A DNA stretch of 61,627 bases, from positions 1 to 61,627 of the forward strand of contig CAYHBB010000005.1 in assembly GCA_964354795.1 (NCBI GenBank), read 5' to 3'. Shown one piece after another: positions 357 through 59,493 of this stretch. The notes under the pieces were generated by a model that was given only the letters and a program-made list of their open reading frames with translations, was not told where the DNA came from and did no database searches. This stretch comes from an uncultured Planctomycetales bacterium (GTDB lineage Bacteria > Omnitrophota > Gorgyraeia > Gygaellales > Profunditerraquicolaceae). The position numbers and the translations under genes were made by a program. Each line of letters starts with the position of its first letter. Position 1 is the stretch's first letter.

Positions 357-439
357 GCCGGAGTGGCGGAATGGCAGACGCAGCAGCCTCAAAAGCTGCC
401 GAGGGCAACCTCATGGGGGTTCAAGTCCCTTCTCCGGCA
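357..439 (+). tRNA. tRNA-Leu (anticodon CAA), class II with a long variable arm
   Basis: Acceptor GCCGGAG/CTCCGGC, anticodon stem GCAGC/GCTGC with loop CTCAAAA, long variable arm, T-loop TTCAAGT. CCA is not encoded. Confidence 0.9.
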
Positions 440-446
440 CTTAATA

Positions 447-1112
447 ATGCCTACCTTTAATTCTTATAAGTGGACTCCGGAACTTGCATACATAGTAGGA
501 CTGATCACCACTGACGGATCTCTCTCAAAAGATAAAAGACATATTGATTTTACATCCACAGACCTGCAGTTATTAAGAACTTTCAGAAAATGCCTATCTT
601 TAAAAAACAGGATCTGCAGAAAATCAAATTCTCACAATCCCGAAAAGAAATATTACCATGTGCAGTTTGGAAATGTCAGGTTTTATAACTGGTTGCTAAG
701 TAAAGGGCTTAGATCAAATAAAACATACAATATAGGAAGAATCGATGTCCCAAAATCATACTTCAGAGATTTTCTACGGGGCCACATAGATGGGGATGGC
801 TCAATATTCACTTATGTCGACAGATATCTTGTGTACAAGAAAAAGCGGTATTCTTATAAAAGGCTCTATACTACCCTTAACTCAGCCAGCCCTAAACATT
901 TAAAGTGGATTCAAACAAATATAAAATTGCAATTAGGTATTAAAGGTGCCCTTGGTTCACACTTAAGAAAAAACAGAAAGTTTCCTGCCTGGAAACTAAG
1001 GTTTGCAAAGAATGACTCATTAAAACTTCTTGCTTGGATTTATTATAAAAACGACATCCCCTCATTAAACCGTAAAAGAAAAATAGCTGAACAGTTCTTA
1101 AATAACGCCTGA
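447..1112 (+). CDS. LAGLIDADG-family homing endonuclease (two motifs in a single chain)
   Basis: Motifs LAYIVGLITTDGSL and FLRGHIDGDGSI lie about 100 aa apart. The tracked ORF start at 363 lies inside tRNA-Leu, so the ATG at 447 was chosen. Confidence 0.8.
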   Translation: MPTFNSYKWTPELAYIVGLITTDGSLSKDKRHIDFTSTDLQLLRTFRKCLSLKNRICRKSNSHNPEKKYYHVQFGNVRFYNWLLSKGLRSNKTYNIGRIDVPKSYFRDFLRGHIDGDGSIFTYVDRYLVYKKKRYSYKRLYTTLNSASPKHLKWIQTNIKLQLGIKGALGSHLRKNRKFPAWKLRFAKNDSLKLLAWIYYKNDIPSLNRKRKIAEQFLNNA

Positions 1113-11328: not shown

Positions 11329-12078
11329 TTATTTTCCTTCCAGCTTTTTCACTGCCTCTAACGCAATCGTAATCAGATTTGACTCCGCCATGTAATATAG
11401 GGGATTCATAAATCCCATCTCTCCAGTGATGACATTGTCGCTGATTGCCAGGATCGAGCCTGCCTTTATTTTGTAAGTCTGGGCGATAGTAAGCAGGGTC
11501 GAAGAGACCATGTCCACTACTTTTGCGCCTTCTTTGCGCTTGACTTCCACTATTTCGCGTGTCTCACGAAGAAGCGCGTCAGTGGTCCAAGCCACGCCGC
11601 GGTGCACATTCAGGCCCATGCTTTTTGCGATATCATACATGGTGTCGGAGATCTTTTTATCGGCAACTGTCTTGAAATCTTTATCCACGTAATACGGGGT
11701 GACCCCGTCGCCGCGGATTACTTCATCTACAATAAATAAATCTCCGACTTTAATAAACTCATCCAAAGAGCCCGCGGTGCCGATACGAATAATATTCTGG
11801 ATCTCGGCATTGCACATCACTTCCGCGGTGATGGCGGTGTCAGTAGAGAACCTTCCGCCGTTCATGGCCGTGATCTTGATGCCGTTGAACATGCCGGTGT
11901 ACATATTATACTCCATGAAAGAGAAGTTCTTCACGGGATTTTCTATTTTTTTCAAAAGCACATCCAGCCTGTCTTTTGGCCCTGGGACAATGGCGTATTT
12001 ACCCACATCCTGCGGCCTGAGCTGCACCATCTGCGTCAGGTCCTTACCCGTCATATGCACATCTTTTTGCATCTGCAT
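11329..12078 (-). CDS. PNP/UDP-family nucleoside phosphorylase (candidate MTA/5'-dA phosphorylase)
   Basis: RIGTAGSL motif and VDMVSST. The ATG at 12078 was chosen because AGGAGAG lies 6 nt upstream. The longer tracked ORF only translates the family B leader. Confidence 0.65.
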   Translation of the reverse strand: MQMQKDVHMTGKDLTQMVQLRPQDVGKYAIVPGPKDRLDVLLKKIENPVKNFSFMEYNMYTGMFNGIKITAMNGGRFSTDTAITAEVMCNAEIQNIIRIGTAGSLDEFIKVGDLFIVDEVIRGDGVTPYYVDKDFKTVADKKISDTMYDIAKSMGLNVHRGVAWTTDALLRETREIVEVKRKEGAKVVDMVSSTLLTIAQTYKIKAGSILAISDNVITGEMGFMNPLYYMAESNLITIALEAVKKLEGK

Positions 12079-12090
12079 GTTTACTCTCCT

Positions 12091-12133
12091 TTCACAGTAA
12101 GTGAAACACTGGCCTATCCTATAAGGCCAGGTG
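12091..12133 (-). promoter_or_regulatory. Family B leader element (hairpin 1 plus hairpin 2, abutting the SD)
   Basis: Minus-strand RNA: CACCTGGCCT-TATAGGAT-AGGCCAGTG, then TTTCAC-TTACT-GTGAAA, then GGAGAG. Confidence 0.7.
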
Positions 12134-12162: not shown

Positions 12163-12253
12163 GTTAGCGGGCACCTGCCGAAGACAGGGTGGCTTGGCTT
12201 GTCCTGCGCGCGGCTTATGGCCGTGCTCGGATCAAGCCAAGCCACCCGCTAAC
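12163..12253. repeat. Family C inverted-repeat element, copy 1
   Basis: GTTAGCGGG...GGTGGCTTGGCTTG pairs with CAAGCCAAGCCACCCGCTAAC. A 60-nt core is identical to 59433-59492. Confidence 0.85.
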
Positions 12254-14248: not shown

Positions 14249-14267
14249 TCTTCCTCCTTAGTTGTTA

Positions 14268-14378
14268 GGTTATCAGTATATCGGAATATCAGTTGGCGGA
14301 ATATCAGGATAGCAGGTTTAGTTTTCTCTGATTCCCTGATATTCTGAACGCTGATTCTCTAATTCCCTGATAATCTGG
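14268..14378. repeat. Family D inverted-repeat element (TATCAG/CTGATA arms), copy 1
   Basis: The left arm carries repeated (A/T)ATCAG and the right arm repeated CTGAT(A/T). It is collinear with 39824-39928 (GGTTATCA..ATATCGG..ATATCAG....CTGATATTC...CTGATAATCTG). Confidence 0.8.
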
Positions 14379-14393
14379 CTTACATATTCTAAG

Positions 14394-17973: not shown

Positions 17974-19434
17974 TTAAATCAACACTTCTCCATTGACCGC
18001 TGCCGCTTCCCACTTGTTAAGGTTATCCAACTGGTCCTTGAAACACAGCTTGGCAAGCGGGTCGAAATTACTCTCCATGATGCGGTTGATGCGTCCGGGC
18101 TTGGAGAAGAATTCACGCATGCACCAGGAACCCAGACGACCAAGGTCTTCCGTAGTCAGATGATCAGTGGGGATGACCGGATGCAAGAAATCCCAGGTAG
18201 AGAAATCCACTTTCTTCGGATCGATCCAGCCTTTCTTAAGCGCAATCCTCCACATCGGAGAGTTCGGGGCAGGAGTAACGTAACCTAACCACAGAATATC
18301 CGGATCCACCGCGTCGCTATACTCAAAACGCTTCTTGATAATAGCTTCGGTATCATGGTCAAAACCCATCATGATATCCGCGACAATAGCAATATCGTTT
18401 TTACGCAGGATATCAATGGTCTTTTGTATCTGATCAAGAGTGGTGCCTTTAGCTATTTTCTTAAGCTCTGATTGGGTGGTCACCTCGATGCCGAAAACGC
18501 CCATAAACAAACCATTTTCTTTCATCAGGGGCAGGATGGATTCGCAATTGACCCAGTCAATGGCCCGTCCCAAAGACACCCATTTGATGGGATTATTAGA
18601 TGCTTTTTTAAGTTCACAGAACTTCTGCACCCTGGCAGGGTCGACATTAAAATTATCGTCCTGAATGACCACAACCTTAACTCCATACTTTTTGTGCAGA
18701 AGATTCAGTTCCTCCATCACCCTTTCCGGAGACTTAGCGCGCCACTTTAAAAAGTCTGAGGGGGAACGCGGATCAAATTGATCCCACTCATAGCAAAATG
18801 TACAAGCTGAGGGGCATCCGCGGGAAGTGACCATATCCACAAACGGCTTCCAATAGGTGTGGCCCACGTATTTATCCATCGGGAACAGGTCATACGCCGG
18901 CAAAGGAAGCTTATCCAGATCCTCCATGAGCGGCTTATGCGGCCCCATGATTATCTCGCTGCCTACGCGTGAGGTTACACCACCCACATCCTTAAGCGGC
19001 TTATTCTTATCTATGGCTTCGATCAGGTCTCCGAAAGACTCCTCTTCCCCCATGACCACAAAATCAACTGCTGGATTCTCTTCCAGCGTCGGCACAGGCA
19101 TGGCTGAATACCACAACCCGCCAAGCACTATCTTTGTCTTAGGCAGCGCTTTTTTAATTCCTGCTGCCGCATCTTTAAAGTGGCGCAAAACTCCATAGCC
19201 ACCATAGCCGTGCAGCTGCTCACCCATTACTACCACATCCGGCGCTTTTTCTTTTACTTTTTCAATAAGCTGGTCCATGGGGATCTGCTCAGCCCTGCCG
19301 TCTATGACCGACACATCCTCATATCCTCTTTCCCGCACATATGCGGCCCAGTGCGCATAAAGCTGATTTGGCGAGCGGTGTATTCCGTGTGATGCCCAGG
19401 CGCCGACTTTCGGCATTACAAAAAGAATCTTCAT
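17974..19434 (-). CDS. B12-binding-domain radical SAM enzyme (class B)
   Basis: N-terminal Rossmann-like B12 domain (KILFVMP..., VVVMGE), then TSRGCPSACTFC (CxxxCxxC). Confidence 0.8.
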   Translation of the reverse strand: MKILFVMPKVGAWASHGIHRSPNQLYAHWAAYVRERGYEDVSVIDGRAEQIPMDQLIEKVKEKAPDVVVMGEQLHGYGGYGVLRHFKDAAAGIKKALPKTKIVLGGLWYSAMPVPTLEENPAVDFVVMGEEESFGDLIEAIDKNKPLKDVGGVTSRVGSEIIMGPHKPLMEDLDKLPLPAYDLFPMDKYVGHTYWKPFVDMVTSRGCPSACTFCYEWDQFDPRSPSDFLKWRAKSPERVMEELNLLHKKYGVKVVVIQDDNFNVDPARVQKFCELKKASNNPIKWVSLGRAIDWVNCESILPLMKENGLFMGVFGIEVTTQSELKKIAKGTTLDQIQKTIDILRKNDIAIVADIMMGFDHDTEAIIKKRFEYSDAVDPDILWLGYVTPAPNSPMWRIALKKGWIDPKKVDFSTWDFLHPVIPTDHLTTEDLGRLGSWCMREFFSKPGRINRIMESNFDPLAKLCFKDQLDNLNKWEAAAVNGEVLI

Positions 19435-19445
19435 ATCCTACCTCC

Positions 19446-19489
19446 TTGCGCAGAAAGCGCAACACTGGCTTATCCTTTAAAGCCAGGTG
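19446..19489 (-). promoter_or_regulatory. Family B leader element (intercistronic, between CLF and the rSAM gene)
   Basis: Minus-strand RNA: CACCTGGCTT-TAAAGGAT-AAGCCAGTG, then TTGCGC-TTTCT-GCGCAA, then GGAGG, then 6 nt, then ATG. Confidence 0.75.
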
Positions 19490-23595: not shown

Positions 23596-23606
23596 TTAAT
23601 GAGCGC

Positions 23607-23722
23607 ATAACTTACGGAGCACTCGTTTTGCTCGCTGCGACGTAAGTTATTTGCGCGAATTAACCCCGCAGCCTGCCACAAAAATATCGAAGAGATTTTT
23701 GGGGCGCTTAGGCAAGGGGCAA
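23607..23722. repeat. Family E intercistronic element, copy 2 (hairpin A, linker and hairpin B)
   Basis: ATAACTTACG...CGTAAGTTAT, GCGCGAATTAACCCCGC, CAAAAATaTC..GAtTTTTGG, CTTAGGCAAGGGGCAAG. It is collinear with 25681-25789. Confidence 0.8.
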
Positions 23723-23737
23723 GACTATACATAATTA

Positions 23738-24007
23738 TTATTTCTTTGCGTTTTTAGGATACCCATACTTCTTATAATCAAATCCAGTCTGCTCCAGGAG
23801 GCGGATCATCATGCTGTAAAACGGAGAAGGCACATCGGAGAAAAAAGCCGCTACCACATCCTGCTCCTGAACCTGATTTGAATTTCTGCCTTTGGCTAAC
23901 TCCTGAGCTACTTTAGTCACCGCCACCTCGGTAATGTGGCGGTGAAACACCGGTATCTTAGCGATAAAAACCCTGAACCTCTCTTTGACTTCCGGATTCC
24001 AATCCAT
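23738..24007 (-). CDS. Small PCP-reductase-domain-like protein
   Basis: WNPEVKERFRVFIAKIPVFHRHITEVAV resembles the W..EA...L..IP.F.R pattern of PF08369. The ATG at 24007 was chosen because GGAGAG lies upstream. Confidence 0.4.
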   Translation of the reverse strand: MDWNPEVKERFRVFIAKIPVFHRHITEVAVTKVAQELAKGRNSNQVQEQDVVAAFFSDVPSPFYSMMIRLLEQTGFDYKKYGYPKNAKK

Positions 24008-24021
24008 ATCTAGAGCTCTCC

Positions 24022-24065
24022 TTACGCAGAAAGCGTAACACTGGCCCATCCTTTAGGGCCAGGTG
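24022..24065 (-). promoter_or_regulatory. Family B leader element (first gene of the PKS-like operon)
   Basis: Minus-strand RNA: CACCTGGCCC-TAAAGGAT-GGGCCAGTG, then TTACGC-TTTCT-GCGTAA, then GGAGAG. Confidence 0.75.
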
Positions 24066-24723: not shown

Positions 24724-25682
24724 ACTCCCATGCTGCGGAATTTCTTATAACGGGCTTTAAGCAACTCTTCGGGCGGCTCTGCTTTTAATTCTTTCAGGTT
24801 CTTAAGCAACACTTCTTTTATATTCTGCGCCATGGCCTGCGGGTCGCGATGCGCTCCGCCCAGCGGCTCAGGAATAACTCCATCAATAATCCCCATCTTA
24901 ATCAGGTCCTGACCGGTAAGTTTTAAGACTGCCGCAGCATCCGGCGCCCGGGCGCCGTCTTTCCAGAGTATCGCCGCACACCCTTCCGGCGATATAACCG
25001 AATAATAAGAATTCTCAAACACAAATACACGGTCAGCGACTCCGATACCTAATGCGCCGCCTGAGCCGCCCTCGCCTATGACTGTAGCGATTATAGGAGT
25101 GGCTATTTGCATCATCTCTCTGAGATTATATGCGATGGCCTGAGACTGTCCGCGCTCTTCAGCTCCTATCCCCGGATATGCACCGGGCGTATCGATAAAA
25201 ATCACAATAGGTAGCCCGAATTTATCGGCCAGCTGCATCACCCTCAAAGCCTTGCGGTATCCCTCAGGATGGGCGCAGCCAAAATTACGCTTTAAATTCT
25301 CTTTAGTGTCCCGGCCCTTCTGATGCCCCATCACTACGACCTTTTGATTATCCAGCTTTGCCAGGCCGCAGATCATAGCCTTATCGTCGCTAAAGCCCCG
25401 ATCCCCATGCAGCTCTATAAAGTCCGTCATCAGCATGCTGATATAATCCAGGGTATAGGGACGTTTGGGGTGGCGGGCCAACTGGACTTTCTGCCAGGCA
25501 GTAAGATTACTATAGGTGGTTTTCTTCTTCTGCTCCAGCTTTTCTTCAAGGCGCTTAAGCTCGGCGGAAAGGTCGATCTTACGGCTGGCGGAAAAATGCT
25601 TCAGCTCGTTAATTTTTTTCTCAAGCTCGACAATATCTTTTTCGAAACTTAATCCAATGGTAGTCATTTTTAATGAGCCCAC
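24714..25682 (-). CDS. accA: Acetyl-CoA carboxylase carboxyltransferase alpha subunit
   Basis: [40 protein letters not shown]. The true start may be the ATG at 25667. Confidence 0.9.
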
Positions 25683-25789
25683 AATTTATGGAGCCCTTCT
25701 CTGGGCGACATAAATTGTATGGGCGAATTACCCCCGCCGAATGCGCTAAAAATTCCAAAGGAATTTTTAGCAGCGTTTATGAGGCGGGG
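25681..25789. repeat. Family E intercistronic element, copy 3
   Basis: ACAATTTATG...CATAAATTGT, GGGCGAATTACCCCCGCC, GCTAAAAATTCC-AAA-GGAATTTTTAGC, GTTTATGAGGCGGGG. Confidence 0.8.
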
Positions 25790-25808
25790 AATCTTATCAT
25801 CACCTCGC

Positions 25809-27763: not shown

Positions 27764-27884
27764 GTTAGCCCCTGCGCTTAGCACCTTGGCATAAATGGCA
27801 CCTTTGCCTATAGGAGGGCAAAGTACGCCTCTTGCGAGGCGTTGCCTAGTGCGCCCCTTCTGGGGCGGAAAGGCGCGGGGCTAC
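27764..27884 (+). ncRNA. Family B nested multi-hairpin element (long form) upstream of comM
   Basis: GCACCTTGGCA...TTGCCTAGTGC encloses CTTTGCC-tatagga-GGGCAAAG and ACGCCTC-ttgc-GAGGCGT, followed by GCGCCCC-ttct-GGGGCG. The outer stem is GCCCCTGCGC/GCGCGGGGC. It is about 85 percent collinear with the reverse complement of 34714-34828. Confidence 0.7.
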
Positions 27885-27939
27885 ACTTTTTGTGTTAGAT
27901 TTTGCCACCCCTTACGTCTATTATAGTAGGAGGTGTTAA

Positions 27940-29472: not shown

Positions 29473-31137
29473 CTATTTGTTAAATACTTCTTTGAGTATG
29501 GTATTAGCAATGCTCTCTGCGAGAAGACGATTGCCTTTTCCTGTACAGTGACCGAAGTCGCCGCCGAACATATCATTAAAGTATTCTCGGTAATCGGTTT
29601 TCTTAAGAGCATCTTTAAATATCTTTTCGTTATCTACAAACATAATGCCTTCTGCATTACCTTGGAATATCCTCTTAAGCGTCTCTAAATTTCGCATGGG
29701 ATACTGCACACAAACATACGCTATACCTCTTTTGTCTAAGATCGCTTTAAGCTTATTATAATTGTCAGTTGTAATTGGATAATAGTAGCTTGATCTTAAT
29801 TCCTTGGCCTTTTTACCATATTCCCTAGCAAGCCTTAGGCTATCCATTTCTCCAAATAATAACTCTAGCGCTCCATATATCCTATCGTCTTTAGGGTCGA
29901 GTTCTAGAGCCTTTTTGAATAACTCCTCAGCCTCAAGAAATCTATTTTGGGCTTGATAAAACTTTCCCAGCCCAAAATATACCAACTCGTTTTTGGGGTT
30001 GAGCTCTATAGCCTTCTTAAATGACTCCTCAGTCTCAGGGAATCTACCCCAGCTTAGATAAAAATTTCCCAGCTCATAATATGCCCAATCGTCTTTAGGG
30101 TTAAGCTCTATAGCTTTCTTGAATAACACCTCAGCCTCAGAGAATCTGCCCTTGCGCTGATAAGAAATCCCTAGCCCAATATATGCCCACTCGTTATTAG
30201 GGTTGAGCTCTATGGCTCTCTTGAATAACTCCTCAGCCTCGGAGAATCTGCCCTTGCTTTTATAAAGCCTTCCCAGCCCAAGATATGCCCAATCGTTTGT
30301 GGGCTTAAGCTCTATAGCCTTCCTGAATAACTCCTCAGCCTCAAATAATCTACCCATGTTTTGATAAGAATCACCTAGCCCAAAATATACATAATCGTTT
30401 TTGGGATCGAGCTCTATGGCTTTCTTGAATAACTCCTCAGCCTCAGAGAATCTACCCTTGTTTTGATAAAGCTTTCCCAGCTCAATATATGCCCACTCGT
30501 TTTTGGGGTTGAGCTCTATAGCCTTACTGAACTTTAATAATGCTTCACTTGACGGAGCATCCTTGTCTTCTGCATAAACCTGTTGTAATTCGACTCTTTG
30601 AAGGAGAGGCTTAGGCTGTTTTGAATCTTTTAATTTGGTTACAATATGTAACCAAAGGAGCCTGCTTAATTTATAGGTTCTAAAAGACTTTAAAAAATTT
30701 ATAAACTTCGAATCAGAAATAGCCTCATAAGGCAGATGCGGACCCATGTCATTAATCCCCATCATAGTAATGACCATATCCGGATGGTATGTCTCGAGAT
30801 CAGATTCAAGCATGGATAATATAGCGGCTGTACTTGTTCCGATAATACCCTTGTCTATCACGCTGAATTTTATGCCGATATTGCGCTGATTGAGTATTTC
30901 TTCCAGAAAAAGCGGATACTGCCCTGCGGTGGTGGATTCACCCAGGCACATAATACGATAAGTCCCTTTTTTGCTGATAGAGGCCCTGTTGCTGTGCTCC
31001 TGGATTGACAACAATACAAACCCTCCCAGGCGTAATCCTATCTCAAGGATAACAACAGTCAAAAATAACCCGAATATTATCAGAGCTATTTTTTGCCAAA
31101 ACGAAGTTTTAGTTAGGGTTTGATTGTTTCGGCTCAT
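29473..31137 (-). CDS. Membrane-anchored SGNH hydrolase interrupted by a TPR array
   Basis: IMCLGESTTAG (block I), MMGINDM (block III), then about 8-9 TPRs (KAIELNPKN...AY..LG), then GGDFGHCT (block V, DxxH). Confidence 0.65.
   Translation of the reverse strand: MSRNNQTLTKTSFWQKIALIIFGLFLTVVILEIGLRLGGFVLLSIQEHSNRASISKKGTYRIMCLGESTTAGQYPLFLEEILNQRNIGIKFSVIDKGIIGTSTAAILSMLESDLETYHPDMVITMMGINDMGPHLPYEAISDSKFINFLKSFRTYKLSRLLWLHIVTKLKDSKQPKPLLQRVELQQVYAEDKDAPSSEALLKFSKAIELNPKNEWAYIELGKLYQNKGRFSEAEELFKKAIELDPKNDYVYFGLGDSYQNMGRLFEAEELFRKAIELKPTNDWAYLGLGRLYKSKGRFSEAEELFKRAIELNPNNEWAYIGLGISYQRKGRFSEAEVLFKKAIELNPKDDWAYYELGNFYLSWGRFPETEESFKKAIELNPKNELVYFGLGKFYQAQNRFLEAEELFKKALELDPKDDRIYGALELLFGEMDSLRLAREYGKKAKELRSSYYYPITTDNYNKLKAILDKRGIAYVCVQYPMRNLETLKRIFQGNAEGIMFVDNEKIFKDALKKTDYREYFNDMFGGDFGHCTGKGNRLLAESIANTILKEVFNK
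29899..30545. repeat. 102-nt periodic DNA repeats encoding the TPR units
   Basis: (G/A)AGCTCTATAGC-like anchors occur at 29899, 30001, 30103, 30205, 30307, 30409 and 30511, an exact 102-nt spacing. Confidence 0.9.
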
Positions 31138-32165: not shown

Positions 32166-32636
32166 TTATTTCTTGGTGGCCTTGGTACTTTCGGCCTTAA
32201 GCTTATCCAAAGAGGAAAGCTGGATATCCTGCCACTTCTTCATCTGGGCGGGAGTAAGCACGCCTTCGATCTTACGGGCGGTCTCAATATCAGAGTAAGA
32301 TATATCCACCTGAAGGTCGGCTATTTTTTTAAGCTGAGGACGGATAGTACTGAGTGGATCCTTATTCTTGATCATCTGTGAAAGGCCTTGACGCAGCTCG
32401 CTGATCTCCTTGCCTTTTTCATTAAGGGTAGTCTGCAATTTTGAAACAAGAGTTTTCATATCCTCGGACTGCTTGTCAGTAAGCCCCAGCTCGCTTTTAT
32501 AATTAAATATGGTCTTGACTTCCTGCTTCTGCGCTTCCTGAGCCGGCTTCGTTGCTTTAGTCTCAGCAAAAGAACTAAGCGCTGACAACTGCAGGCCGAC
32601 GGCCGCGATAAATGCGATTTTTAACAGCTTTCTCAT
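32166..32636 (-). CDS. Periplasmic LTXXQ-motif (Spy/CpxP-like) protein
   Basis: Signal peptide MRKLLKIAFIAAVGLQLSALSSFA; LTDKQ and LTPAQ motifs. The ATG at 32636 was chosen because AAGGAGGAA lies upstream. Confidence 0.65.
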   Translation of the reverse strand: MRKLLKIAFIAAVGLQLSALSSFAETKATKPAQEAQKQEVKTIFNYKSELGLTDKQSEDMKTLVSKLQTTLNEKGKEISELRQGLSQMIKNKDPLSTIRPQLKKIADLQVDISYSDIETARKIEGVLTPAQMKKWQDIQLSSLDKLKAESTKATKK

Positions 32637-32652
32637 CGTGTTCCTCCTTTTA

Positions 32653-32723
32653 CACTGGCTTATCCGTGCCCACAAGGCACGCACTTGGCAATCCATTATG
32701 CCAAGGTGCTATAAAGCCAGGTG
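32653..32723 (-). promoter_or_regulatory. Family B leader element, once-nested form
   Basis: Minus-strand RNA: CACCTGGCTTTATAG[CACCTTGGCA-TAATGGAT-TGCCAAGTG][CGTGCC-TTGT-GGGCACG]GATAAGCCAGTG, then AAAAGGAGG. Confidence 0.7.
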
Positions 32724-32747
32724 TTATTGATTCTACAAGGTTATCCC

Positions 32748-34357: not shown

Positions 34358-34696
34358 TTAAGAATTCTTCTCGGCGATGTCGCCGGCAATCGGAAGCTTG
34401 AAATACTCGCCCTGATAGGCCTTGACCATCAAAAATATCCACAGGATCAGGCTTACCACGCCCACAATAGGCATGATCGCCCAGCCGATCACCGGAATGA
34501 TCGCCAGGACCGCGTTCAACACCCAAAGAAATCCAAAGGCTATGATAGATTGCATGGCATGAAAACGCACAAACTTATTTTCTTTCTCGACTAAGTAGAA
34601 AATTATCCCAGTAATAGGGCCGACCAGGTAGCTTAAAAGCGCAGCTAAATTGGGCTGCATTCCGGTTGAAGTATTGCCCAAACTACTATTTTCCAT
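34358..34696 (-). CDS. DUF4870-family small membrane protein
   Basis: LLSYLVGPITGIIFYLVEKENKFVRFHAMQS signature and 3 TM segments. The ATG at 34696 was chosen because GGGAGGG lies upstream. Confidence 0.65.
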   Translation of the reverse strand: MENSSLGNTSTGMQPNLAALLSYLVGPITGIIFYLVEKENKFVRFHAMQSIIAFGFLWVLNAVLAIIPVIGWAIMPIVGVVSLILWIFLMVKAYQGEYFKLPIAGDIAEKNS

Positions 34697-34713
34697 ATTA
34701 CCCTCCCTTTGTG

Positions 34714-34828
34714 CTGCTGGCCTATCCTGCCCAGAAGGGGCGCACTTGGCAATTGCCTCACAAGAGGCATACTTTGCCATCAAATAGGCAAAGGTACCTT
34801 TTATGCCAAGGTGCTTTAAGGCCAGGTG
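34714..34828 (-). ncRNA. Family B nested multi-hairpin element (long form)
   Basis: Minus-strand RNA: CACCTGGCC TTAAAG [CACCTTGGCATAAAAGG[TACCTTTGCC..GGCAAAGTA][TGCCTC-TTGT-GAGGCA]ATTGCCAAGTG][CGCCCC-TTCT-GGGCAG] GATAGGCCAG, then the SD. Confidence 0.7.
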
Positions 34829-34880
34829 TATCTTTTAATAATTATAAACCAAATCGCCCTTTATTCAAGCAAATTTATCT

Positions 34881-36829: not shown

Positions 36830-38213
36830 TTCTCAGCTCTCCCACCACAAATAGAGACCCTGTCCCAAGGATAAGGTCGTCTTTTGCAGCAAGCTGTATT
36901 GCTTCCTGCTTCGCCTCTTTTACGCTGCTAGTTAAAAGATAATTCCTGCCTTTAAAATATCGGCTTAAAACCTTGGGGTTTTCTGCTCGCGGATTATCGG
37001 CGCAGGTCAAGATAACCTGATCAGCTAAACTATAAAGCTCATTACAAATCCCTTTAATATCTTTGTCCTTGGATATTCCTAGCACTAGGATCAATTTCTT
37101 ATATTTAAAATTGTTCCTGATGGTTTCTTTTAATGCTTTTACGGAAGCGATATTCTGAGCTCCGTCGAGCACAACCAAAGGATTCCTGGACACAACCTCA
37201 AACCTGCCCGGCCATTGAGTATTCAAGAGCCCTCTTCGTATTATCTTTTGGCTTATCCCTGACTTAAGCGCCTTGACTGCGCTAACCGCAACCGCAGCGT
37301 TTATCCGCTGATGCTTTCCAAACAAAGGAAGCTTTATCCCCATTAAAGGCTTATTTATTTCCTGTAACACTACCCCGACTTCTTTACATCTATTACGGAT
37401 TACAATTGCCGCTTCTTTTTCCTGCGGCGCACTTATCACAATCGCCTGACACCCACTTGAGCTTTCCGGTCCTTTGACACCCACTTGAGCTTTCCGGTCC
37501 TTTGACACCCATTCGAGCTTTCCGGTCCACTGATACCCTTTAATAATCCCCGCCTTCTCCCTTGCGATCTCTCGCAAGGTTTTCCCCAGCTTCTGGGTAT
37601 GCTCGTAGCTGATGGGCGTGATCACGCTTACCAGGGCATTGGCGGTATTAGTCGCATCCAGCCTTCCGCCTAAACCAGTCTCCAGCACCGCGAAATCCGT
37701 CTTCTGCTCCTTAAAATACACAAAGGCTAAAGTAGTATACACTTCAAAAAATGACAGCGGCCCGTATTTTGAGCCTTGATTATACCTATCTATCTCCGGC
37801 TTTAATTTGCTAACTATCCTAGCCAATTCAAGCTTGGCAACCATCCCCTCAAACGGATCTGACACTTTGACACCAACTTCAGCTTTCCGGACTTTTGACA
37901 CCAACTTCAGCTTTCCGGCTTTTTGACACTCTAATATACGAATTCTCTCCCGAAAGTCGGATAAATGCGGAGAGGTATAAAGCCCGACCCTGAACCCCGC
38001 TTCCCGCAATATATAGGTAATGAAGGCACAAGTCGAACCCTTGCCCTTAGTGCCGGCTACATGGATACAACGCAAATGGCTTTGAGGATTGCCGATGAGA
38101 GAAAGAAAATCTTTAATGCGCTCCAGCTTCAGGGATTGTTTATAAGGATAGTCGATGAATTTTTCGTAATTAACAAAACTCTCGAGGTATTTTATTGTCT
38201 GAGGGTAGGTCAT
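36822..38213 (-). CDS. folC: Folylpolyglutamate synthase / dihydrofolate synthase carrying two repeat-encoded insertions
   Basis: VAGTKGKGST P-loop, ETGLGGRLDATN, IAREKAGIIK. At 463 aa it is about 45 aa longer than I recall for typical FolC. The excess coincides with the family A arrays. Confidence 0.85.
   Translation of the reverse strand: MTYPQTIKYLESFVNYEKFIDYPYKQSLKLERIKDFLSLIGNPQSHLRCIHVAGTKGKGSTCAFITYILREAGFRVGLYTSPHLSDFRERIRILECQKAGKLKLVSKVRKAEVGVKVSDPFEGMVAKLELARIVSKLKPEIDRYNQGSKYGPLSFFEVYTTLAFVYFKEQKTDFAVLETGLGGRLDATNTANALVSVITPISYEHTQKLGKTLREIAREKAGIIKGYQWTGKLEWVSKDRKAQVGVKGPESSSGCQAIVISAPQEKEAAIVIRNRCKEVGVVLQEINKPLMGIKLPLFGKHQRINAAVAVSAVKALKSGISQKIIRRGLLNTQWPGRFEVVSRNPLVVLDGAQNIASVKALKETIRNNFKYKKLILVLGISKDKDIKGICNELYSLADQVILTCADNPRAENPKVLSRYFKGRNYLLTSSVKEAKQEAIQLAAKDDLILGTGSLFVVGELRNA
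37447..37538. repeat. Family A tandem repeat array, locus 2 (inside folC)
   Basis: Three 28-nt units start at 37447, 37475 and 37503, plus a terminal octamer TGATACCC at 37531. The three units total 84 nt, or 28 codons. Confidence 0.9.
37860..37931. repeat. Family A variant array, locus 3 (inside folC)
   Basis: TGACAC octamers at 37860, 37868, 37896 and 37924. Two 28-nt units read TGACACCAACTTCAGCTTTCCGG(A/C)(C/T)TTT. Confidence 0.9.
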
Positions 38214-39792: not shown

Positions 39793-39823
39793 CGATCTTT
39801 CTCCCGTAAAAACAATTAACTGC

Positions 39824-39928
39824 GGTTATCATCATATCGGGATATCAGTAGGCAGAATATTAGGTATCAGCGGATCAGGTTAAATCTGATACCCTGATTT
39901 TCTGATATTCTGCCTACTGATAATCTGA
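39824..39928. repeat. Family D inverted-repeat element, copy 2
   Basis: A 17-bp perfect arm, ATCAGTAGGCAGAATAT, pairs with ATATTCTGCCTACTGAT. Flanking TATCAG/CTGATA repeats are collinear with 14268-14378. Confidence 0.85.
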
Positions 39929-39945
39929 TTTTCTGATACCCACAT

Positions 39946-42611: not shown

Positions 42612-42890
42612 GGCAAGACTCCTTTCGCAGAAAGCGAAACACCAACCTTTCCTATAAGGTTGGGTGTTACAGTAAGCTACGCCCTATAAAGCCAGGTGTA
42701 AGCAGTAAGCAAAACACCAACTTTTCCTATAAAGTTGGGTGTTGCAGTAAACTACACCCCAGCTATAAGGTATGCTGGGTGTGTCCTTTTTAGGACTACA
42801 CCCCAGCTATAAGGTATGCTGGGTGTGTCCTTTTTAGGACAAAACACCGGCCTTTCCTATAAAGCCAGGTGTTTGCTTTAAAGGTAAGAG
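42612..42890 (-). ncRNA. Long structured leader of the EF-G2-like gene (array of family B hairpins)
   Basis: Hairpins lie at 42623-42639, 42639-42667, 42714-42742, 42844-42872 and in the two units at 42752-42839. Three have AGGA in the loop in the mRNA sense. Confidence 0.6.
42752..42839. repeat. Exact 44-nt direct tandem duplication (two hairpins per unit)
   Basis: CTACACCCCAGCTATAAGGTATGCTGGGTGTGTCCTTTTTAGGA occurs at 42752-42795 and again at 42796-42839. Confidence 0.95.
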
Positions 42891-42898
42891 GAAGCCTT

Positions 42899-42927
42899 AT
42901 TATATAATACCTGTATGGGAGGGTCAA
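42899..42927 (-). promoter_or_regulatory. Consensus-like sigma70 promoter for the EF-G2-like gene
   Basis: On the minus strand: TTGACC (42927-42922), a 17-nt spacer, then TATAAT (42904-42899). Confidence 0.65.
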
Positions 42928-43028
42928 GGCTAAATTGGCGTACACCCGGCCTTATGGGAAAGGCCGGTGTGTGGTCCAGAAAGGACACACCCGCTGAACC
43001 TTTAAAGCGGGGTGTAGCTTTCTGCCAC

Positions 43029-43072
43029 AAAAAAGCGCGAAACCCTCAAGGCTTTCCTTTAGAGTTTCGCGC
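43029..43072 (-). terminator. Rho-independent terminator of the kamA / ATP-grasp operon
   Basis: Minus-strand RNA: GCGCGAAAC, a 20-nt loop, GTTTCGCGC, then TTTTTTGTGG. It lies 15 nt after the stop codon. Confidence 0.75.
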
Positions 43073-43086
43073 CTGAATAAATACGG

Positions 43087-46310: not shown

Positions 46311-46620
46311 GTGTCAAAATTCTCTTCGATAATTTTGACACGCTCGGTGGGGTTAATTCGGGTATATAACTTACCCCACAGGGGTAGGCCTTCCTATACC
46401 TTTTAAGGAAGGGCCTTATGTCGCCTATAATTAAATAATTTCTCCATAAGTTATGCCCTCATTAAAAATAAAGGGCCCAATTCCTTTCTGAGCCCTTAAA
46501 AGATTTCGCCTTATTTTTCAAAGTTGGTTTAAATCCTCCTCACGCGTTACTCTATATATTGTATCTACACTTATTTTTATCACAACCTGTAGTCAATGTC
46601 AAGAAGATTCTGCTTAATAA

Positions 46621-53718: not shown

Positions 53719-56064
53719 TTATTTTACCTTCTCAAAAACCACCCTTTGCTTGATTTTTTTCGCCAGGCCCTCGTAAAACTTTTTAAATTCCGCGTACTCG
53801 CTTTCGAGGATAGCCTGTTTCTTAAACACCGTATCCTGCCTGAAAAACAAAAGATTATTCTTAAAACTGTACTCTACGCTCACACCCATCCAAGGGCTAT
53901 CCTCGGATATATTGCCGGGAATAAATTTAGCTGTATAAGTTTTTGGCACAGCGATCTCAAAAATCGTTTCCTTCTTATCTAAGACGCTGAAATCCAATGC
54001 ATAAAACCGTTTATCTTTAGCGACCAACGCTGTGTCAAGGCCAGCCAGCTGCGGCATAAGGCGCAAGCTACCGGCAACGGTAAAATATTCCGGGCCGGAA
54101 AAAGAGTATTTCAGCTCCACCGGCTTATTCAGGTCATTAAGATTAGCGATAGCGTAGTCTTTAAGCGTGGCTCCGATAGAAAATTCCTGGATCCTTTCTT
54201 TTAATTGCGCCTCGATCAGCTCCGGCTGGGTATAAAGCAGCCAATAGCGTTGACCCTGATCATAAATCCCGTAGGTAAAAATATCTTTCTTTGCCAGAAT
54301 AGTCTCATCATCATTGATGCTGATGCGTGTGGATTGTCTGACCAGATTGTGCTCTGGCTCATAAAGCGGCGTAGTCTCTATACGGAATTTATCCTCTTGG
54401 CAGATGAATACCGTGCGCGCCTGATCGCCAGCCGGGAGATCTGCGAAAGAACAGGTCTGGGCCGTGGGATCAAGAAAAATGATCCTGTCATTTAGCAATA
54501 CGCTTGCAATACAGTGGTCGAAAAGCATCGCCGGAAAATCCGGGTTCAGGTTGTAGTAATCTTTAGTGGGGATAAGCACCGGCCAGGCCTTAAAGCCGGC
54601 ATCTTTTAACATAGTTACCAATAATATCGCCTGGTCTTTACAATCGCCGTATTTATTACGAAATATATCCGCTGCCTGATGCGGCTCAAATCCCGCCTGT
54701 CCGTATTCCACCGCCACATAGCGGATATCTTTGGCGCAAAAATTGTAAATGGAACGGACTTTTTCCTCATCAGTCTTAAGGCCGCGGATCAATTGTTGCA
54801 CCTTGTCTTTTATAGCGGCATCCGCCTGGATTTTATCCTTAGCTAGCTTCCACCACCAATCGTATAACTCCTGCCACTCTTTAAAAGAAGACAAAATCAC
54901 GGTGGGAGTGATCTCTACCACAGGAGGCATATCCGCTTCGCTGATTATTTGAGGAATGTCTTTGAACTTCCAACGCAAAGTGACGATGCCATCTTTTTCC
55001 TCTTTCTCAGGAGTAAGCTTAGCTCCAAAAGTATTATACCGCTCATTAATGATCTTAAGGTTAGCGGGATTTTCTTTAGGAAAGCTCACGATAAAATCCG
55101 CGGAAATTATCGGATCAGCTGACTGCAGCGAATAAGGGACCCCATAATCCTTCTTATTTACCAGCTGGTTGCGGTAAACTTTAAGCTTATACTCCACGCT
55201 TACGCCATCGGCAATCTCAGGGAATGAAATAATAAAAACGCGGGCGTTGCTGTAGAGGGGAAAATTAAGATACTTGGATACGTCGCGAATATGACGCGCG
55301 CCCACATCTACCACCGTACCGTCGCGCTTGATGGTACGGGCGTATTCCAGCTCGACTTTCTCGTAAGTGGAATCATACTCGATCTTGGCCTCGGAAAAAT
55401 CTTCTTTACCGCGCTCATTAAGGATCTTTACCAGATAATGCAAGCGTGAAACTTCGGTATTTTCCCGGGTGACCTCGATACTTTCATTACACAGAAGGAT
55501 CAATGCCCCTGCCTGCGGATAAAGCTCCTCGCTTGGCGCATTGGCGATTGCCTGATACGACTCCGGGCTCAGCTCCCTGATATTGCGACCGACAGCCAAC
55601 CGCTCTATAGCCTCAATACGCTCTGCGGCAAGGAAAGCAAATTCTTTTTCTTTTATCTTCTTGTAAGCAGCAAGAGCAGGATCAAAAAGATTTAACTTTT
55701 CGCAAGTCAATCCCTTATAATACAGACATTCGTCGTCAGAACTGTCGATCTTGTCAAGGACCTCCAGCGCGTCGGTAAACTCTTGGCTGCGATAAAATGA
55801 TATCCCCAAAAACTTTTTCGCCTGAGGCAGGCCGCTCTTGGCAAAACACTCTGTGGCTTCTTTAAACGCGCCATGGCCAAGATACAGTTTACCGAGGTCA
55901 AAATAAAGCTGATCAACATTCTGCCCCTTTATTATCTCCTGCTTGTAACCGGCAAGCGCCTCCTGGTAATATTGTTCTGATTTTCTAGCCAGCTGCTGCG
56001 CTTCAGTGCCAGCATTCGCCCCGCATCCGGCTATAAACAACGCCACTAAAATGACCCCTGACAC
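53719..56064 (-). CDS. TPR + DUF3857-like + transglutaminase-like domain lipoprotein
   Basis: Lipobox LFIAGC, and YGDCKDQAILLVTML transglutaminase core Cys. The GTG start lies inside a family A repeat, so the start is uncertain. Confidence 0.65.
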   Translation of the reverse strand: MSGVILVALFIAGCGANAGTEAQQLARKSEQYYQEALAGYKQEIIKGQNVDQLYFDLGKLYLGHGAFKEATECFAKSGLPQAKKFLGISFYRSQEFTDALEVLDKIDSSDDECLYYKGLTCEKLNLFDPALAAYKKIKEKEFAFLAAERIEAIERLAVGRNIRELSPESYQAIANAPSEELYPQAGALILLCNESIEVTRENTEVSRLHYLVKILNERGKEDFSEAKIEYDSTYEKVELEYARTIKRDGTVVDVGARHIRDVSKYLNFPLYSNARVFIISFPEIADGVSVEYKLKVYRNQLVNKKDYGVPYSLQSADPIISADFIVSFPKENPANLKIINERYNTFGAKLTPEKEEKDGIVTLRWKFKDIPQIISEADMPPVVEITPTVILSSFKEWQELYDWWWKLAKDKIQADAAIKDKVQQLIRGLKTDEEKVRSIYNFCAKDIRYVAVEYGQAGFEPHQAADIFRNKYGDCKDQAILLVTMLKDAGFKAWPVLIPTKDYYNLNPDFPAMLFDHCIASVLLNDRIIFLDPTAQTCSFADLPAGDQARTVFICQEDKFRIETTPLYEPEHNLVRQSTRISINDDETILAKKDIFTYGIYDQGQRYWLLYTQPELIEAQLKERIQEFSIGATLKDYAIANLNDLNKPVELKYSFSGPEYFTVAGSLRLMPQLAGLDTALVAKDKRFYALDFSVLDKKETIFEIAVPKTYTAKFIPGNISEDSPWMGVSVEYSFKNNLLFFRQDTVFKKQAILESEYAEFKKFYEGLAKKIKQRVVFEKVK

Positions 56065-56122
56065 CCACTTGAGCTTTCCGGTCCATTGACACCCACTTGA
56101 GCTTTCCGGTCCGCTGACACCC
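56059..56122. repeat. Family A tandem repeat array, locus 4
   Basis: 28-nt units start at 56059 and 56087, with a terminal octamer at 56115. The array fills the gap between the hypD stop and the next start. Confidence 0.9.
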
Positions 56123-57213
56123 TATCTATGATATTTATAGTAAGCATTACACGCTCCTTCATGCGAAACCATGCACGGGCCCACCGGATTATCCGGAGTG
56201 CAGGCCCTGGCAAACAGCGGGCAAAGATCAGGCCGGATCAGGCCTTTTAAAACTTCCCCGCAAAGGCATTTCTTTATCTTTGCGTCATACTTTGTGACCC
56301 GCTTAAAAACAAATTTCTTCGAGGCGTCGAACCCGGAAAATTCTTGTCTTAACGTCAGGCCGCTTTTAGGGATCTTTCCCAGTCCACGCCAGGAAGCACC
56401 TGCAGGCTGAAAAACCCGATTGATAATCTTTACGCCTTTAGGATTCCCTTGTTTCTTTACTACCCGGATGTATTGATTATCCACCCGCGGCTTGTTTTGT
56501 GCCAATTGACGCATCAATAGATAAATACCTTCCAAAATATCCAGCGGCTCAAATCCAGCGACACAGCTGCCGATACGGTATTTCTTCACCAGGAATTCGT
56601 AAGGCCGGGTGCCGATGATGCTGGAGACATGTCCGGGGCAAAGAAAACCGTCGAGCTTAAGCCTTTTATCCCGGCATAAATATTCCATAGCCGGAGTGAT
56701 CAATTTTAAAGCGCACGAAAATGTAAGGTTGGGGATCTTTTCTTTCTTGGCGGCAAGGATAGTCAGAGCGATGGTGGGAATAGTAGTCTCAAACCCCACC
56801 GCCAGAAATACTACCGACTTATCAGGGTTAGCCCGGGCCACACTGATGCTCTCAAGCGGCGAATATACCACCCGGATACTTCCTGAACGAGCCCTCTCCT
56901 TTTCCAGCGTAGAAAACGTACCCGGAATACGCAGCATATCCCCGAAGGTAAGGATGAGCGCGTCTTTTCTTTTGGCCAAAGCAATGGCCGCGTCGATATA
57001 CTCCTGGCTGCTTACGCACACCGGGCATCCCGGCCCGGCGATAAGCCGTAGGTTTGCGGGAAGCATCTTATCCAGCCCGAAGCGGAAGAAATTCTGAGTA
57101 TGTGTGCCGCAGACCTCCATGATATTCACCTGCCTAGGAGGCGTAACTGCGCGGATACCTTCCGCAACTTTCCTGACTAACTTTATATCGCGGTATTCGT
57201 CAACGAATCTCAT
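56122..57213 (-). CDS. hypD: Hydrogenase maturation protein HypD
   Basis: MEVCGTHT, GPGCPVCV, FETT, and the C-terminal Cys cluster PVGPCMVSHEGAC. Confidence 0.9.
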   Translation of the reverse strand: MRFVDEYRDIKLVRKVAEGIRAVTPPRQVNIMEVCGTHTQNFFRFGLDKMLPANLRLIAGPGCPVCVSSQEYIDAAIALAKRKDALILTFGDMLRIPGTFSTLEKERARSGSIRVVYSPLESISVARANPDKSVVFLAVGFETTIPTIALTILAAKKEKIPNLTFSCALKLITPAMEYLCRDKRLKLDGFLCPGHVSSIIGTRPYEFLVKKYRIGSCVAGFEPLDILEGIYLLMRQLAQNKPRVDNQYIRVVKKQGNPKGVKIINRVFQPAGASWRGLGKIPKSGLTLRQEFSGFDASKKFVFKRVTKYDAKIKKCLCGEVLKGLIRPDLCPLFARACTPDNPVGPCMVSHEGACNAYYKYHR

Positions 57214-59417: not shown

Positions 59418-59493
59418 TTTAGCGGGTCCTGCCTTGGCTTGTCCTGCGCGCGGCTTATGGCCGTGCTCGGATCAAGCCAAGCCACCCGCTAAA
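59418..59493. repeat. Family C inverted-repeat element, copy 2
   Basis: TTTAGCGGGT..CTTGGCTTG pairs with CAAGCCAAG..ACCCGCTAAA. The core is identical to the copy at 12193-12252. Confidence 0.85.

Follow-up and report, generated by a model that had tools for sequence, protein, structure and literature searches.

Nested double-hairpin units in the leaders of comM and other Omnitrophota genes: a probable lineage-specific, self-nesting repeat family

The closest bacterial analogues of the elements presented here are the repetitive extragenic palindromic (REP) sequences, bacterial interspersed mosaic elements (BIMEs) and REPINs of Proteobacteria, which owe their mobility to RAYT tyrosine transposases (Di Nocera et al. 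2013, PMC3733652; Bertels & Rainey 2011, PMC3116915). In design, the present elements come closest to the double-hairpin elements and the mobile GC clusters found in fungal mitochondria (PMC4478555). We analysed a 61,627-nt stretch of metagenome-assembled DNA (contig CAYHBB010000005.1; the whole stretch is hereafter called the window) in which multi-stem structures, ~115 nt in their long forms, occupy the 5′ leaders of comM, a DUF4870 gene and a gene for a secreted LTxxQ-motif protein. They probably arose step by step, as copies of a small repeat unit were inserted precisely, one after another, into the loop of a like unit already in place. On our best reading, the family is a leader-resident, self-nesting double-hairpin repeat, lineage-specific to Candidatus Omnitrophota, that resembles REPs and miniature inverted-repeat transposable elements (MITEs). 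Its behaviour is that of repeats of these types: copies multiply within a genome, line up in tandem arrays and are present or missing at orthologous sites.

REPs and the Omnitrophota unit are both short (20–40 nt), imperfect, bulged palindromes in high copy number, up to hundreds, that lie outside genes, form genome-specific sequence families, cluster in alternating orientation and show no obvious target duplication. REPs are transcribed and thought to act as RNA hairpins, a likeness that extends to the Omnitrophota unit if, as we infer, it is transcribed too. However, REPs carry an unpaired GTAG or CGTC tag, whereas the Omnitrophota unit ends in NAC-C...GUN; CTAC precedes only some copies of one sub-family (that is, GTAG on the side opposite to the REP tag). 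REPs are also found mainly downstream of genes, between unidirectional or convergent genes, in contrast to the Omnitrophota units, which lie immediately upstream of the Shine–Dalgarno sequence (SD) in the sense orientation. Since both the GTAG/CGTC tag and the downstream location (PMC3733652) were lacking, the units were not filed as REPs. An 8-nt GGA loop, an obligatory second hairpin and recursive loop insertion have not been described for REPs; SD adjacency, the conserved GGA loop and the recursion are the unusual features of this family. The double-hairpin elements of Allomyces mitochondria (Paquin, Laforest & Lang 2000), the yeast GC42 clusters (Wu & Hao 2015, PMC4478555) and the hairpin repeats of sponge mitochondrial DNA are likewise tiny (about 30–80 nt) mobile units of one or two hairpins, with short defined target sites, tandem arrays, merged or shuffled copies and a structure that is kept while the sequence varies. 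They differ in their organelle setting, in their sequences and targets (AG for GC42), in having no relation to ribosome-binding sites and in the lack of any reported strict loop-in-loop recursion. Literature searches returned nothing on leader hairpins of Omnitrophota, and no recursive leader repeat of such a type was found there or in the RNA-family library. No Rfam family matched the elements, either in the window at the gathering score or between 19300 and 35000 even at E ≤ 5.

The building block is a 42–44-nt unit composed of a hairpin, B, and a small pyrimidine-loop hairpin, h. Hairpin B (27 nt) has a 3-bp base, (A)CAC/GUG(U) (general form NAC/GUN), with an extrahelical C after the 5′ CAC, and above it a 6-bp stem of variable sequence and the 8-nt loop UAWAGGAU. 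Hairpin h has a stem of 3–5 bp and a U/C-rich loop such as UUUCU. In simple copies the order from 5′ to 3′ is hairpin B, UU, hairpin h, SD (AAGGAGG) and start codon, and the ends of the unit are conserved as (U/A)A-CAC-C ... GUG-UU. GGA is invariant within the loop of hairpin B and recurs in the SD, 13–16 nt past the hairpin. About 16 B-type copies occur in the window, and the pattern CACC-N6-TAWAGGAW-N6-GTG, with one mismatch allowed, matched nine times compared to 0.02 matches expected by chance. The simple units and the cluster of units in the window are as follows.

12092–12133, minus strand: simple B-h unit directly 5′ of AAGGAG, ATG at 12078 (PNP_UDP_1 gene)
19448–19489, minus strand: simple B-h unit 5′ of AAGGAGG, ATG at 19434 (B12-binding radical SAM gene; the g19 leader)
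24024–24065, minus strand: simple B-h unit 5′ of AAGGAG, ATG at 24007 (the g24 leader)
42625–42666, minus strand: simple B-h unit within the 42612–43086 cluster
42612–43086, minus strand: 475-nt spacer upstream of an EF-G-like gene, holding a cluster of ~9 B-type units in both orientations

The unit at 24024–24065 lies ~30 nt downstream of a TTGACA/TATAAT promoter. The cluster surrounds a predicted promoter (TTGACC-17-TATAAT), with two of its units placed between the upstream terminator and this promoter, outside the leader. In the g24 leader, the minimum free energy (MFE) fold swaps hairpin h for a pairing between GCUUUCU and the SD region GGAGAGC (24024–24036 with 24012–24023, minus strand). 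The pyrimidine loop of h could therefore act as an anti-SD, which hints that this leader may adopt two alternative conformations.

At three loci the two-hairpin design recurs at up to three levels, here numbered from the outer hairpin (level 0) inwards, with h1 and h2 denoting the small hairpins of levels 1 and 2. The features below were located by folding, by reading the sequence and by comparison with the related loci L102, L001 and L126, which are described further on.

27764–27768, plus strand: GTTAG, left copy of a 5-nt direct repeat that brackets the whole comM element (comparison with L102)
27769–27898, plus strand: composite element of the comM 5′ leader, 130 nt, ending in the second GTTAG at 27894–27898 (alignment with L102, fold)
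27767–27882, plus strand: level-0 (outer) hairpin of comM, arms 27767–27777 and 27873–27882 (fold)
27781–27866, plus strand: level-1 module of comM, B hairpin GCAC-C-UUGGCA/UGCCUA-GUGC (27781–27852) plus h1 GCCCC UUCU GGGGC (27853–27866)
27800–27842, plus strand: level-2 module of comM, 43 nt, (C)AC-C-UUUGCC UAUAGGAG GGCAAA GUA plus h2 GCCUC UUGC GAGGC
27883–27895, plus strand: small hairpin ACAC UUUUU GUGU closing the outer module of comM (read from the sequence; kept in L001 and L126)
32652–32724, minus strand: level-0 hairpin ACAC-C-UGGCUU UAUA[...]GGAU AAGCCA GUGU, directly 5′ of AAAAGGAGG, ATG at 32636
34713–34829, minus strand: level-0 hairpin ACAC-C-UGGCC...GGCCA, 5′ of GGGAGGG, ATG at 34696

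The outer stem of comM is formed by AGCCCCUGCGC and GCGCGGGGCU, and UUA and GGAAAG are its junction strands. MFE folding reproduced the stems as read (27767–27882, −64.4 kcal/mol, z −4.35; 34713–34829, −50.3 kcal/mol, z −3.27; 32652–32724, −34.1 kcal/mol, z −3.91), and 0–1 of 200 shuffles folded equally well. The nested multi-stem structures that a preliminary description had proposed for these loci are thus borne out by the folds (z −3.3 to −4.4) and by the shuffled control. At 32652–32724 the loop between UAUA and GGAU is interrupted, as had been read earlier, by a hairpin of like design plus a GC hairpin; this is a 44-nt insert of level 1 and h1 (32666–32709), with the B hairpin GCAC-C-UUGGCA UAAUGGAU UGCCAA-GUGC. 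At 34713–34829, level 1 with h1 (34729–34814) encloses level 2 with h2 (34753–34795). The level-2 insert of both long forms is a 43-nt B-type hairpin, (U/C)AC-C-UUUGCC N8 GGCAAA-GUA, followed by GCCUC UUGY GAGGC; the two additional hairpins described for the inner loop are therefore present, but they sit at the 3′, G-rich edge of the level-1 loop and not in its middle. The long forms lie on opposite strands and are both sense to their downstream gene, in agreement with the preliminary description. Two stretches, of 61 nt (89%) and 33 nt (88%), match between them as inverted repeats, so that the collinearity of ~100 nt claimed for them holds for the inner ~95 nt and not for the outer stems, which are unrelated in sequence. 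Pfam confirmed the assignments of comM and the DUF4870 gene, whereas the LTxxQ gene had no Pfam match at E ≤ 1e-3 and owes its name to two LTxxQ motifs recognised by eye.

The junctions of these inserts were precise. In 15 of 16 nested copies, level 1 is inserted exactly between UAUA, UAUC or UUAAA and GGAU or GGAA, with no nucleotide lost or duplicated, and the halves of the parent loop equal the halves of simple loops (UAUAGGAU, UAUCGGAU and UUAAAGGAUA). The discrete insert of 43–44 nt lying exactly between UAWA and GGAU supports the earlier proposal of repeated insertion into the UAWAGGAU loop. Its position at the 5′ side of the loop GGA parallels that of the simple B-h unit, which stands directly 5′ of (A)AGGAGG. 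The period of tandem arrays is 42–44 nt, level 1 with h1 measures 43–44 nt and level 2 with h2 43 nt, indicating that one and the same double-hairpin module of ~43 nt is duplicated, arrayed and nested. A scan for the level-2 module placed 8/10 Omnitrophota copies (the window copies counted) inside level-1 loops. Of the other two, L122 has the module free as part of a tandem array and L131 has it where level 1 is lacking. The module can therefore exist on its own, and a strict hierarchy with level 2 confined to level 1 was rejected as an absolute rule.

Signs of amplification within genomes were also apparent. Stem-arm identity was 0.71 within metagenome-assembled genomes (MAGs) compared to 0.47 between them, with MAG-specific arms such as CGGCCA in 6/6 copies of one MAG and CAAUCC or UGGCYU in others; this within-genome likeness would fit an amplifying repeat family. 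The leader arrays of several genomes contain an inverted module (CAC-C-CCAGC UAWAAGGUAU GCUGG-GUG plus GUCC UUUUUA GGAC). The genes downstream are unrelated (ComM, DUF4870, secreted LTxxQ-motif protein, radical SAM enzyme, PNP/UDP phosphorylase and EF-G paralog, with rplS in another MAG).

Orthologous leaders were found empty, simple and filled, which answers positively the earlier suggestion to look for empty versus filled loops and for intermediate states. The comM leader occurs in four such states; all genomes compared are metagenome assemblies, and the alleles from metagenomes were read on short contigs. In L102 (ComM 75% identical in amino acids), which was the sole useful full-length ortholog from a metagenome scan for ComM relatives, the block 27769–27898 is missing and TTTTTTTCGTTAG is directly followed by ATTTC (UUUUUUUCGUUAG and AUUUC in RNA form). 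Contigs from the sediment metagenomes X1, X2 and X3 have the outer hairpin only, with arms as in the window and the plain loops UUAUUAGGAAG, UUAUAGGGA or UUAUAUGAAG. The ortholog L001 (93% identical) has the outer hairpin and level 1, whose loop is intact (UAAAUGGC); level 2 (27800–27842 of the window) is absent from it and the empty site has no target duplication. The window itself carries the outer hairpin with levels 1 and 2. Deletion by slippage between direct repeats was considered for the empty level-2 site and rejected, as the flanks (..TGGC and ..GGCGT) do not yield the observed junction (by eye).

Two further leaders show the same, the hairpin at 24039 being filled in L013 and that at 19463 in L009. 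In the g24 leader, L009 lacks a unit but keeps the TTGACA/TATAAT promoter, the window has a single simple unit and L013 has two, the first of which is stuffed with another self-nested module family and with levels 1 and 2. The g19 leader has no unit in an X1 contig, a simple one in the window and a level-1-filled one in L009. Judging from these alignments, the nested forms look like stepwise insertions, and parsimony favours gain, not precise loss, as the usual direction. A second gene of the Lac Pavin MAG (L126, 960–1215 of JAPLLR010000041.1) has a leader that is paralogous to the whole comM leader, without h1. It retains UUUUCGUUAG, the outer hairpin, levels 1 and 2, ACACUUUUUGUGUUAG and UUACGUCUAUU..UAGGAG, indicating that the composite leader was duplicated as a whole within this genome.

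The ribosome-binding site of comM is sequestered in a hairpin of its own (27893–27939), in which CACCCCUUAC pairs with GUAGGAGGUG at 9/10 positions (by eye; also present in the MFE fold). In L001 the 5′ arm of this hairpin is UACCUCCUUAUAC, an anti-SD mimic. The 43-nt stretch had a word depth of 100–230 in sediment metagenomes compared to ~10 for its flanks, and was found on many contigs with differing flanks, so that it is a multi-copy RBS/leader repeat of the community in its own right. One copy occurs in the window and none in the fetched loci.

We further investigated the distribution of the unit across bacterial lineages. A scan of one genome per species (185,579 species) with the pattern CACC-N6-TAWAGGAT-N6-GTGTT returned 85 loci, with complementary N6 arms in 40 and non-complementary arms in 45. 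Arm complementarity was no part of the search pattern and hence is independent evidence for the hairpin. Almost all complementary-arm loci (38/40) came from Omnitrophota MAGs, a count that takes in a Planctomycetales-labelled MAG sharing synteny with the window. All 45 non-complementary loci came from other phyla and, on both counts, are chance hits. The window itself belongs to Candidatus Omnitrophota: a MAG from Lac Pavin sediment shares synteny with it at ~90% DNA identity and encodes a ComM 93% identical to its own. Synteny with the window at 70–88% DNA identity, along with the same repeat families, was also observed in the CAYGZJ01 MAG (L009, L010, L038, L045 and L066), deposited as ‘uncultured Planctomycetales’; its taxonomic label is probably wrong.

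Both helices of the unit covaried. Across 36 simple units, 7/9 pairs of hairpin B changed on both sides, with a covariation score of 0.57 compared to 0.23 for shuffles and ≤0.15 with the partners slid. In 15 nested copies, 8/10 pairs of the outer helix changed on both sides and 90% of its cells were paired, compared to 32–42% with the partners slid. For hairpin h, at least 10 different complementary stems were counted by eye. The level-1 module within outer hairpins was found at nine loci from eight Omnitrophota MAGs. This module is almost invariant across genomes with coding DNA only ~70% identical, while the outer arms diverge and covary, which argues for a sequence-level constraint, either recognition by a factor or recent spread.

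Placement and orientation were biased. Across 384 kb of related DNA, 36/91 B hairpins had an SD and the start codon of an open reading frame (ORF) of ≥60 aa within 45 nt downstream in the sense orientation, compared to four in antisense, and 55/91 lay in sense within 150 nt upstream of an SD and start codon. At the Omnitrophota loci the hairpin is followed, after a fixed 13–16 nt, by AAGGAGG and a start codon. The imperfect stems contained nine G·U and no A·C pairs among 450 stem positions. Under double-strand symmetry alone, transitions would give the two equally, so that the excess of G·U points to the transcribed strand. comM is the single plus-strand gene and its element is likewise on the plus strand. 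Taken together, mismatches confined to G·U and an orientation that follows the gene argue that the fold has been selected on the transcribed strand. Promoter-like sites end 5–10 nt upstream of the nested elements at 34829 and 32724 (TTGAAT-16-TATAAT, ending at 34841, for 34713–34829; TTGAAA-17-TAGAAT, ending at 32730, for 32652–32724; both minus strand), and from these predicted 5′ ends the hairpins would form the very start of the mRNA. MFE folding left the SD and AUG unpaired, downstream of the stacked hairpins, in 4/5 leaders. This arrangement is like that of the 5′ stabiliser stem-loops of ompA, aprE and ermC, where a stable hairpin at or a few nt from the 5′ end is followed by an accessible strong SD; those are features of single genes, whereas the Omnitrophota units are dispersed and self-nesting and their 5′ ends are predicted.

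The difference in folding energy between strands (sense more stable in 11/15 nested and 26/36 simple copies, by 0.5–1 kcal/mol) was too weak to serve as evidence. A reading of the elements as terminators or attenuators was rejected, as a scan for terminator-like sites called none in sense within the three elements; its sole match inside an element was antisense (34772–34793, plus strand). In sense, the stems precede UU and hairpin h, or AAAAGGAGG, and not a U-tract directly.

A mechanism that would produce this pattern can be outlined. Within a transcribed leader, units would be inserted or copied, in sense, directly 5′ of a GGA motif, the target being either the SD (AAGGAGG) of a gene or the GGAU half of an existing B-hairpin loop. 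Insertion at the GGAU of a resident loop would give the recursion from level 0 to level 1 to level 2. The mobiliser may be an enzyme that reads folded single strands via an extrahelical base, most plausibly of the HUH/Y1 type, a type that would account for the fixed site and the absence of duplication. Such recognition of folded single strands through an extrahelical base is how the transposases of IS200/IS605 and RAYT (HUH/Y1) and the integron integrases act. At the RNA level, the units would form nested stems that are very stable and fold independently, placed at the 5′ end of the mRNA or close to it and leaving the SD free, and they might be tolerated or favoured as stabilisers or insulators of the leader. 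Their SD-like GGA loops may also be displayed to the 30S subunit or to a GGA-binding, CsrA-like protein. It is possible, albeit doubtful, that the mechanism is of an undescribed kind, in which a single-stranded DNA or RNA-templated activity opens the loop of the bulged-C hairpin exactly 5′ of GGA and likewise places units before SDs, with the host putting the ‘fractal’ leaders so formed to use as a phylum-specific means of controlling translation or mRNA stability via a factor that binds GGA loops.

Known small elements share some of these properties. Correia elements of Neisseria, ERIC/IRU of enterobacteria and BOX/RUP of pneumococcus are small non-autonomous repeats, often co-transcribed, whose fold in the mRNA alters its stability or processing, and BOX is modular (A-Bn-C). 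In contrast to the Omnitrophota unit, Correia, ERIC and BOX elements are 100–200 nt long, have terminal inverted repeats and target duplications (TA for Correia), follow no SD-adjacency rule and do not nest within themselves. The terminal inverted repeats and target-site duplication of MITEs were not found, the level-1 and level-2 junctions being free of duplication. Palindrome-associated transposable elements (PATEs) derived from IS200/IS605 carry a similar subterminal hairpin at each end and, some 10–20 nt further out, the guide and cleavage tetranucleotides; they insert 3′ of a fixed target. The fixed site and the lack of target-site duplication agree with the Omnitrophota unit; its two hairpins, however, are unlike each other and have only 0–2 nt outside them.

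Several observations weigh against the insertion of a repeat unit. The nesting order is strongly hierarchical, with all ~18 level-1 copies in a level-0 loop besides the level-2 copies counted above. This is not obviously expected of a promiscuous loop-targeting element and could instead reflect an RNA with optional domains or gene conversion between copies. Level 2 sits 1–3 nt further 3′ than level 1, again without duplication, making a rule of one target approximate, and the outer element of comM alone, unlike the other junctions, is bracketed by GTTAG repeats. The polarity of the events (insertion or precise excision) was assigned by parsimony with one outgroup, and the conservation of loop and base is partly by construction, as most loci were fetched with patterns derived from the element itself. 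Pfam identified no transposase, integrase, RAYT or CsrA among the 62 ORFs of the window, and no genome-wide search was made. The locus is present only in DNA metagenomes, and the single metatranscriptome (X25) had no usable coverage of the leaders. Finally, the conservation of level 1 looks like functional constraint. The last point, together with the hierarchy, is accounted for by the strongest rival, in which the elements are one conserved cis-regulatory RNA, a three-way junction with an optional two-hairpin extension and no inserting repeat; the variable outer helix, invariant inner helix and GC hairpin would form a site for a protein or small molecule, and simple hairpins would be its minimal version. 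We regard this as unlikely. Level 1 and h1 are indeed nearly invariant over the eight MAGs while the outer helix covaries, the order from level 0 to level 2 is strict in most copies, the SD-adjacent position and orientation are fixed and mismatches are G·U and never A·C. However, one regulatory RNA is hard to reconcile with downstream genes as unrelated as those of ComM, the DUF4870 and LTxxQ-motif proteins, a radical SAM enzyme, rplS and an EF-G paralog, or with tandem arrays, antisense copies, copies outside transcription units, arms homogenised within genomes and the absence of an Rfam match even at E ≤ 5. Presence also varies between genomes of ~90% DNA identity, as it does among metagenome contigs from the same sediment samples, whose relatedness to the window is not established.

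Less likely again is that the units make up a CsrA/Rsm-type regulon, with the loop A-W-A-GGA and the SD AAGGAGG as paired GGA sites for a CsrA-like dimer, and nested or clustered forms as multivalent, high-affinity or sponge-like binders. Two GGA sites, one in the loop of a short hairpin (ANGGAN closed by base pairs) and usually a second at the SD, make up the classic layout of a CsrA target. The invariant GGA of the loop, the second GGA 13–16 nt on, the further GGA-bearing loops and junctions of the nested elements and the ~9 such hairpins within 475 nt (42612–43086) all recall CsrA/RsmE leaders and the multi-hairpin arrays of the CsrB/RsmZ sponges. The conserved NAC-C/GUN base 9 bp away with its bulged C, and the register of GGA in the loop, are nevertheless foreign to known CsrA sites; level-2 loops are often without GGA (UAUUUGAU and UUUUUGAU), the units are polymorphic and several of the cluster are antisense. 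No csrA gene was found by Pfam in a search confined to the window, and such a regulon would cover function and not the insertion polymorphism. A DNA-level signal without a role in RNA, in which the folded single-strand hairpin would be an attC-like or REP/RAYT-like site of recombination or replication and the sense placement would be incidental, appears very unlikely, although the extrahelical C and conserved base triplets are reminiscent of features recognised in attC and REP, units occur in both orientations and also between terminator and promoter, and the junctions are precise without duplication. Against it stand the bias of 36 sense to four antisense relative to start codons, the constant spacing of 13–16 nt to the SD, the plus-strand gene being accompanied by the only plus-strand element and, among the Pfam matches of the window, the lack of a nearby integrase or HUH gene. 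Integron attC sites are folded sites of 57–141 nt with R″/R′ core sites (RYYYAAC/GTTRRRY), extrahelical bases and an adjacent cassette ORF; the 27-nt B hairpin shares only the extrahelical base, with no core sites or cassette structure. Chance palindromes or an assembly artefact can practically be dismissed, even with the window and its relatives being metagenome assemblies, given the nine matches compared to 0.02 expected and the recurrence of the nested architecture in independent assemblies from many sites. In protein look-ups for the DUF4870 and LTxxQ leaders, one protein was not on record and the other led to an independent Logan assembly, whose leader was identical over the 151 nt inspected.

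The preliminary description had left the choice between a loop-targeting mobile palindrome and the modular growth of a protein-binding RNA, and the data do not separate the two. An element may be both ‘mobile’ and a ‘functional RNA’, since the fold bears marks of selection on the strand that is transcribed. The self-nesting repeat would add to the small bacterial repeats a type that resides next to ribosome-binding sites, carries an SD-like loop and inserts precisely and recursively into its own loop. This would imply an enzyme able to open a hairpin loop at a single phosphodiester bond and leave no duplication, and a route by which complex multi-stem RNAs can arise from one simple module. Leaders with 0, 1, 2 or 3 nested levels at one orthologous site form a natural series in which one can measure directly how added structure affects translation and mRNA stability. 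Omnitrophota intergenic regions are mosaics of repeat families, which bears on the assembly, binning and annotation of uncultured genomes.

Several other repeats were observed in the window and its relatives. A third double-hairpin family (46373–46416, minus strand, and 5125–5210 of L013) has the form CCCUUCC UUAAAAGGUAUA GGAAGGG plus CCCC UNUG GGGG; L013 has one copy nested in the loop of a second, the pair being enclosed in turn by the loop of a B hairpin. A family of ~140 nt occurs at 23596–23737, 25683–25808 and 46311–46470. Its copy at 25670–25808 is absent from L001 and an X3 contig, and that at 23596–23754 from X1 and X2 contigs. Short tandem arrays of a 28-nt unit (TTTGACACCCACTTGAGCTTTCCGGTCC) were found at 2471–2590, 37417–37538, 37838–37931 and 56029–56150, some of them at gene ends or in called ORFs. 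A long intergenic hairpin of ~60 nt (GGGUGGCUUGGCUUG...CAAGCCAAGCCACCC) is present in two 98%-identical copies 47 kb apart (12187–12247 and 59430–59492). Short intergenic repeats of the CTGATA(T/A)TCTG type, direct and inverted, lie upstream of two genes (14249–14393 and 39793–39945) and look like arrays of protein-binding sites. At 357–439, a tRNA gene (Rfam, 54 bits) overlaps the start of an ORF (363–1112, plus strand) with a LAGLIDADG_3 homing-endonuclease-like domain, which may be an endonuclease gene next to or within the tRNA locus. Lastly, six tandem 102-nt repeats at 29763–30572, in the gene for a 554-aa TPR protein, correspond to 34-residue TPR units that are recognisable at the DNA level.

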